This document shows positions 23,503 through 24,820 of a stretch of DNA of 32,856 nt, piece by piece. The notes under the pieces are model-generated. The model did not search any database. It saw only the letters and a list, made by a program, of their open reading frames with translations, and had not been told where the DNA came from. Origin of the DNA: Nematocida ausubeli. Taxonomy: Eukaryota. Positions within the stretch are counted from its first letter, which is position 1. Every line of letters begins with the position of its first letter. The position numbers were made by a program, and so were the translations under genes. The stretch spans positions 806,001-838,856 of the forward strand of contig NW_026515635.1 in the NCBI RefSeq assembly GCF_000738915.1, given 5' to 3'.

Positions 23503-24820
23503 TGAGTGTGTGTCTAGCTGTCAATAAATGCTTGTTTCGTTCTCTACTTATCTGTAGTGTGTTACTCTCTTTCTTCTCTCTTTGTATCTGATCAGTGGTG
23601 GTTCTCTAGAATGTGTTGCTTTTCTCCTATTTCTTGTCTCTAGTGTTTTATTCTCCCGAATATTCTAGTAAAATAAATTGCTTCAGAGGGCTATAAGTAT
23701 ACTTTATTTTCCCAATAATACGAGAAAAAAATACAATAAGGACACTGGAAAGAGAAGAAAAGTAAAAAGTAGACAGATGCACATAAATGAAGAAATAGTC
23801 AGATAAGTAGATAATATAGATGTATTAATAGGTATAAGCGCTACTAGGATCAGTATAAGGCTTTTTTGACTGAATACTGCAAATATATTCATAATACAAA
23901 CATATACTGATAATTTGCAATGAAAGATGAGTGAGCTGCTGTGTAGTGTAGAAAGAAAGGCAAATAACCCGAAATGCCAACCCCTCTCATATAATCCAAA
24001 TATATATATACATTATCACTAAGCTTTTTGCAATTCTTTTATGGTAGTCACCATTATTTTATTTTAGAACAAAAGGAAAAAGGTATAGAAAATTCCAGAA
24101 AAAAAAATATAAATTTAATTTATTTTTTCCTGAAACACGACGTTACAAGATCATGAGCATCACCAAAAGTAATATCACGCAGCAACAGAACAATGACCAT
24201 ACCACAAAGGAAAGAACAAACAACTTCCCTCCCAAGCATTCATCCAATAAAACATACGTGAGTAAATCTCTCTCTCTTATCGATTTCTATGCATCTACCG
24301 GGCGATTTCCGGACTCAAGGGACCGCATCTTTAATTTTAATTTTATATTTTTGTCAGACATACTATGCTGTTAGCTGAGATCTAGAGAAGCATAATATAA
24401 AACAAGAAATCTAAATGATGTGTAAGATATATAACCCGAAAAAGATGAAAAAGCATGGCGAACACAAAGAAGTCGAACAAAAGGTCTATAAAGGAATACG
24501 TGATAATAGCCGCTGGTGTGCTATTAATACTATCAATGGTGCTATACACATGTGTAGCCACACCACTCAGCCAACACAAATCGCAGGAAAGACCATTAAG
24601 TATGATAGATGAATCGGAGAGATCTTTCACAGATACAAAAAGTAATGTAGTGCATGAAAACAGACAATTTGATGATGGAGGAAGTAAAGAAGCAGGCACA
24701 GTAATACAAGTTGAGCAAGTGGGTGATAGAATAGGTGCGGAGCATGCTTCTACGCCTTTAAAGGTATCTGCACCAGATGAACATAGCAATTCTTCTTTTA
24801 TAAAAGAGAGAAAAAGAGAG
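23503..24820 (+). repeat. Segmental duplication copy 1 (upstream region plus 5' part of a B gene)
   Basis: Colinear similarity with about 31052-32375, e.g. GTCTAGCTG.CAATAA.TGCTTGTTTCGTTCTCTA and TAGTGTAGAAAGAAAGGCAAATAACCCGA. Confidence 0.9.
24040..24327 (+). mobile_element. 288-bp solo-LTR-like insertion (TATGGTA...GGGACCGCA) with TCTTT target-site duplication
   Basis: Absent from the paralogous copy, whose empty site reads GCAAC-TCTTT-AATTTT at about 31876-31891. TCTTT at 24035-24039 and 24328-24332. Ends in CA. Confidence 0.8.

Follow-up and report, generated by a model that had tools for sequence, protein, structure and literature searches.

Inserts upstream of paralogous NemLGF6 genes

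Two paralogous genes of Nematocida ausubeli, here named B6 and B7, each carry an insert of nearly the same length in their upstream region, which raises the question of what these inserts are and whether they have altered the expression of the genes behind them. An initial annotation had read them as two related LTR lineages that hit the same duplicated promoter region, implying targeting or selection for LTR-driven rewiring of effector expression. In this study, we examined both inserts (E1 upstream of B6, E2 upstream of B7) in a window of 32,856 nucleotides, i.e., the whole stretch of DNA that was analyzed, to which all coordinates refer. Our main reading, to which we assign a probability of about 0.6, takes E1 as a genuine insertion of 288 bp that duplicated 5 bp of its target, likely an old Ty3/gypsy solo LTR and, in its position upstream of B6, likely a near-neutral passenger. 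The genes that flank the inserts are as follows.

24455..25648, plus strand: B6, 397 aa, NemLGF6 family, ATG at 24455, orthologue NERG_01059
32009..32856, plus strand: B7, paralogue of B6, ATG at 32009, running off the window end
20456..23179, minus strand: family-A gene divergent to B6, ATG 860 bp from E1
26428..30441, minus strand: family-A gene divergent to B7, ATG 914 bp from E2, with an N gap at 28998-29507

The B6 protein shows 98% identity to NERG_01059 of N. ausubeli, and 15 of its 16 protein matches come from this species. NERG_01059, which is listed with one N-terminal TM and lies 4 kb from a scaffold end, is assigned to NEMLGF6 in Supplementary Data 5 of PMC5423893, as are the four B6 paralogues that were looked up; the family fills 118 rows of that table. 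The neighboring locus tag, NERG_01060, appears there as NEMLGF1, and the family-A gene at 20456..23179 is, judging from this adjacent tag, likely a NemLGF1 gene. Pfam returned no match for nine of ten proteins and a weak, sub-threshold one for the remaining protein, while 108 pattern matches to B6 relatives in metagenome contigs yielded no confirmed case.

At the DNA level, B7 and B6 are 73% identical over aligned columns. Both genes stand head to head with a family-A gene, and the gaps in front of them are the sole two divergent intergenic gaps among the 13 delimited genes of the window. Without the inserts, these gaps measure 982 and 1275 bp, and a single other gap (1321 bp) exceeds both. 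Two gene models in the window are irregular. The 5' coding part of the family-A gene at 26428-30441 occurs twice around the N gap with about 88% identity, which may reflect a tandem pair of paralogues or an assembly that joined two haplotypes, and positions 13587-14700 likely hold a single family gene broken into ORFs of 270 and 98 aa.

Anatomy of the two insertions

Alignment of the B6 and B7 upstream regions revealed either insert as a clean gap in the other copy, with flanks that are 80.6% identical (557 of 691 aligned columns). The following features were delimited.

23944..24039, plus strand: upstream block kept among paralogues (paralogue contigs), shifted by E1 293 bp further from the B6 ATG
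24035..24039, plus strand: left target-site duplication of E1, TCTTT (sequence), found once where the site is empty in B7 and other paralogues
24040..24327, plus strand (sense): E1, 288-bp insert, likely solo LTR with TA…CA ends (alignment, contigs)
24246..24251, plus strand: AATAAA in E1, predicted poly(A) signal, 82 nt from the 3' end
24268..24277, plus strand: CT-rich box in E1, 56-60 nt from the 3' end
24328..24332, plus strand: right target-site duplication of E1, TCTTT (sequence)
31351..31355, plus strand: left target-site duplication of E2, AAAAG (sequence)
31356..31642, plus strand: E2, 287-bp related insert, likely solo LTR with TG…CA ends (alignment)
31643..31647, plus strand: right target-site duplication of E2, AAAAG (sequence)

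E1 starts with TATGGTA and ends with GGGACCGCA, and at a breakpoint set by the alignment, a perfect repeat of 5 bp is expected by chance with a probability of about 0.0016. The description of the insert and its TCTTT duplication in the initial annotation was confirmed, and so were its distances to the start codons, as E1 lies 127 bp from the B6 ATG and E2 366 bp from that of B7. Near-equal length, an orientation shared with the B genes, and different insertion points had also been recognized correctly: the two sites are about 240 bp apart in the aligned upstream regions. Since each insert is missing from the other upstream copy, both insertions postdate the duplication; that they occurred independently is likewise supported.

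Neither insert contains a long ORF, the longest stop-free run in E1 being 93 codons. Terminal inverted repeats were not apparent, as only 4 of 12 terminal positions match in each insert and none of the 10 inverted pairs listed joins the ends of E1. E1 gave no Rfam match at E values up to 1 and has no A-rich tail; a weak Rfam match in 23180-24460, outside E1, was taken as chance. The 3' layout recurs in E2, with AATAAA likewise 82 nt from the 3' end and CTCTCT at 58.

Relationship between E1 and E2

Over their whole length, the two inserts are identical in 152 of 304 columns, and nhmmer detected this similarity at E values of 1.2 to 1.4. The corresponding z score was 4.3, compared with 3.6 for a chance candidate located within a gene. 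The last 100 nt agree at 53 of 100 ungapped positions, a value found in none of 5000 shuffles and none of 12,064 non-coding windows (maximum, 43), with the 3'-end anchoring of this comparison having been picked after the alignment was seen. At the 5' end, 17 of 50 anchored positions match and six of the first eight letters are common. E1 and E2 are thus, on sequence comparison, distantly related at the 3' end, and the little internal identity noted earlier describes the inserts overall but not their last 100 nt.

A search for further family members in the window by blastn and nhmmer found none, at a sensitivity that is low because E1 and E2 barely detect each other. A structural scan of the window gave five candidates at 250-330 bp, compared with 1.9 in shuffles. 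Those at 1233, 12656, and 31120 were rejected because they lack the CT box and match weakly at the 3' end (only 23-37 of 100 positions). The candidate at 12656-12952 lies in the longest gap and spans 297 bp; it is flanked by a repeat of 5 bp, its AATAAA is 85 nt away from the end, and its 37/100 match to E2 has a z score of 2.6, inside the chance range.

E1 in contigs of public sequencing runs

The presence of E1 was checked in public contigs of 4 of 17 listed runs (here X1, X2, X5, and X9). E1 was found in all four samples, contigs of this kind showing presence, not absence. In X1, X2, and X5, a single contig runs across both E1 junctions with 0, 3, and 3 differences, respectively, and in X9 two contigs each cross one junction. 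The empty site was found as well: in X2, X5, and X9, contigs of paralogues join position 24034 to 24328 with the five shared letters present once, and in X1 the empty site of paralogues appears as loose contig ends. The 5' junction of E2 corresponds to a loose end of one X1 contig.

In each of the four runs, the interior of E1 (24133-24255) has the depth of one spanning contig, and therefore no second close copy, at an identity of at least 82%, was seen in any of them. One X1 contig joins 24129 to 24268, skipping 138 bp; it was considered as an E1 relative and rejected, as low-complexity sequence lies on both sides, and may represent a distant relative or a chance match.

Depths of the E1 contig and the 3' flank were 63 and 64 in X1, 100 and 117 in X2, and 58 and 55 in X5. 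In X9, the E1 contigs had depths of 33.7 and 52.2 and the flanking contigs 83.5 and 102.4, a hint that E1 may be heterozygous (present or absent) in this sample, with the proviso that contig depth is not copy number. No near-identical empty allele was found among the X9 matches listed.

E1 as a likely solo LTR

LTRs have TG…CA ends, produce target duplications of 4-6 bp, and are reduced to solo LTRs when they recombine. Their R-U5 layout places a poly(A) signal on the same strand near the 3' end. E1 departs from this pattern in its first dinucleotide, TA, whereas E2 begins with TG; both end with CA. Neither E1 nor E2 could be connected with a full-length parent, gag-pol, a primer site, or a polypurine tract, and because the latter three are missing the LTR label is inferred from anatomy. 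Of the earlier proposal of two related LTR lineages, the distant kinship and the LTR-like anatomy are retained, and the assignment itself stays at this anatomical level, with no internal part linked to the inserts.

Six LTR families in Nematocida sp. and four in N. parisii are given in Table 1 of PMC4202319, which also states that most microsporidian LTR elements are Ty3/gypsy. Given the families reported for Nematocida sp. and the anatomy of the insert, a solo LTR is the best reading, and E1 is likely that of a Ty3/gypsy element, the superfamily being borrowed from PMC4202319. E1 resembles these microsporidian elements in host lineage, short length, LTR-like ends, and target duplication and differs from them in that no internal polyprotein is linked to it. 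The lack of a second close copy fits an old family. In the searched part of the PMC4202319 supplement, three short E1 motifs were not found, and Nematocida occurs only in the species table and N. parisii as tree labels. Term searches of PMC7313128 returned no mention of Nematocida, and no description of Nematocida solo LTRs was found by title or abstract start among open-access papers.

Two other origins have to be weighed against a solo LTR. An assembly artefact or a chance repeat could be suspected from the N gap and the near-duplicated family-A gene in the window, and also from the blind scan for such ends, which gives about 1.9 chance matches per shuffled window. E1 is not such an artefact, because its junctions are spanned by contigs, in all four runs, and paralogues show the empty site; this contig evidence has already refuted the idea, which retains practically no probability. 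The inserts might also be another short non-autonomous element mobilized by an integrase, such as a terminal-repeat-poor DNA element or a fragment with TG…CA ends. This would agree with the unseen parent element, the single close copy in four runs, and the 5' halves that are hardly alike. However, terminal inverted repeats and an A-rich tail are both absent, and a poly(A) signal on the same strand, equally far from the 3' end in both inserts, fits the R-U5 layout of LTRs, so that we consider this origin improbable. Among specific classes, a MITE or other class II element was rejected for want of terminal inverted repeats and a structured RNA or SINE for want of an Rfam match and an A-rich tail. 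The Nosema MITEs (PMC4405373) are likewise short non-coding inserts in microsporidia, but by definition they require the terminal inverted repeats that E1 lacks.

Candidate core promoter downstream of the inserts

Closer to the start codons, and downstream of both inserts, a short motif was found.

24428..24436, plus strand: candidate native core promoter of B6, two mismatches to TATATTAGC, running into CCC, 27 nt before the ATG and downstream of E1
31982..31990, plus strand: exact TATATTAGC motif, 27 nt before the B7 ATG and far downstream of E2

With 0-1 mismatch and 27-32 nt before the ATG, the motif precedes six of nine non-A genes and none of four A genes, compared with 1.1% of 3060 background windows, although it was chosen from the same window genes on which it was counted. 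The two-mismatch level of the B6 copy is reached by 7.7% of background windows. Motifs of this type precede the ATGs at 979, 6274, 7642, 9226, 10802 (two mismatches), 18772, and 32009 by 27-35 nt. The motif is a candidate family-specific core promoter of non-A (NemLGF6-type) genes, a function suggested by PMC2803860 and PMC10815200. According to these sources, which concern genera other than Nematocida, microsporidian 5' untranslated regions (UTRs) are very short and the signals adjoin the ATG; in E. cuniculi, the 5' UTRs measure under 7 nt (PMC2803860). The proximal motif of B6 (24428-24437) is unlike that of its paralogues and resembles 15181-15190 before the A gene at 15213, both ending in CCC.

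An mRNA started in the 3' part of E1 would meet ATGs at 24289, 24365, 24415, 24418, and 24445 before that of B6. Four of them are out of frame, and the one in frame is followed by a stop after six codons, leaving no in-frame extension of B6.

Expression and integrity of B6

In the S1 Table of PMC9762603, NERG_01059 has 0 and 7.65 FPKM in two hosts, and the values of five paralogues are 0/29, 29/0, 0/38, 0/0, and 143/118, which makes it the second lowest of the six family members looked up. These RNA data are from 10 h only, with parasite reads below 1%, and are not linked to the insert status of alleles. Low FPKM is the family norm in this table, because four of the five paralogues show 0 FPKM in one host or both. 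In NEAUS04, NEAUS06, and NEAUS07, the annotation breaks the B6 orthologue into two pieces of 130 and 176 aa (residues 1-130 and 222-397); NERG, NEAUS05, and the window have the gene in full length.

Passenger, silencer, or driver of B6

E1 is probably near-neutral and likely does not drive B6. Two other effects on the gene are conceivable. In one, E1 would have lowered B6 expression and set the gene on course to become a pseudogene, because the upstream block now lies 293 bp further off and a poly(A) signal precedes the gene. The block at 23944-24039 is kept in paralogues, E1 sits between it and the ATG, and the orthologue is both low in FPKM and split in three assemblies (PMC9762603 and the annotations above). 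Against this, four of the five paralogues reach 0 FPKM too, and the proximal motif of B6 has also changed by itself; we regard such damage as unlikely. The other, which follows the initial annotation, is that LTRs reached these promoters by targeting, or were kept there by selection, and that NemLGF6 expression is now driven or rewired by them. In favor of this idea are the gene orientation of both inserts, their location within 400 bp of the ATG, and their placement in the sole pair of divergent gaps that the window contains, as well as Tf1 insertions in fission yeast, which can raise the expression of neighboring genes (PMC7175516). The idea conflicts with the very short 5' UTRs of microsporidia, with the five ATGs, four out of frame, ahead of the B6 start codon, with the weak expression and frequent splitting of the gene behind E1, and with several paralogous promoters that are empty of E1, and appears doubtful to us. 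No line of evidence is decisive alone, and none suggests that a gain of expression was selected. The proposed selection for LTR-driven rewiring therefore does not hold up: the candidate promoter motif lies downstream of both inserts, and the gene is weakly expressed in shallow data and split in three assemblies. As to a hit on the same duplicated promoter region, both inserts do lie in paralogous upstream copies, but each copy is one of several paralogous promoters, and others among these are empty.

For two uniform insertions in the 8928 bp of non-coding DNA in the window, the probability of one falling in each divergent gap is 0.031, a value that overstates the case, because the inserts were exposed by the paralogue, an equally distant third element would be missed, and several paralogous promoters are without E1. 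A general preference for promoter-side gaps, as for Tf1, would give the same picture without selection on these genes. Tf1 inserts 100-400 bp upstream of genes in tandem or divergent gaps, and the Ty3/gypsy solo LTRs of Tf1 and Tf2 in Schizosaccharomyces pombe lie mostly within 400 bp of a start codon (PMC7175516). E1 and E2 are intergenic as well and fit this range in two of two cases, whereas targeting by Tf1 rests on genome-wide counts and known host factors.

PMC5423893 counts one member of NemLGF6 among the host-exposed proteins and describes, for N. parisii, local duplication of large families. The B6 orthologue belongs to this family, but host exposure was reported for that one member and not for B6. 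LTRs near NemLGF1 or NemLGF6 genes are not mentioned in the parts of PMC5423893 covered here.

Proposed history and implications

In the history that we propose, an integrase would have placed a full element into the divergent NemLGF1/NemLGF6 gap upstream of B6, and recombination between its two LTRs would then have taken out the internal part and left E1. A related family may have done likewise, independently, at B7, giving rise to E2. That both inserts remained would be explained by their location in non-coding DNA that is long, redundant, and situated upstream of the proximal promoter, perhaps together with a general integration bias toward promoter-side gaps. A bolder scenario, which we consider a long shot, is that divergent NemLGF1/NemLGF6 promoters serve as a target of Nematocida Ty3/gypsy integrases, in the manner of Tf1, and that the solo LTRs segregate among haplotypes and tune the expression of host-exposed paralogues. 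If true, this would mean that transposons act as an expression switch in the reduced genome of a microsporidian, in a genus reported to be without RNAi (PMC10393165).

The immediate result is a small gain in annotation, namely two likely solo LTRs in N. ausubeli and a candidate NemLGF6-type promoter motif, and the 3' layout common to E1 and E2 is usable for finding more such elements. Should promoter targeting or an allele-specific effect prove true, transposons would be tied to the variable expression of host-exposed genes in a model microsporidian.
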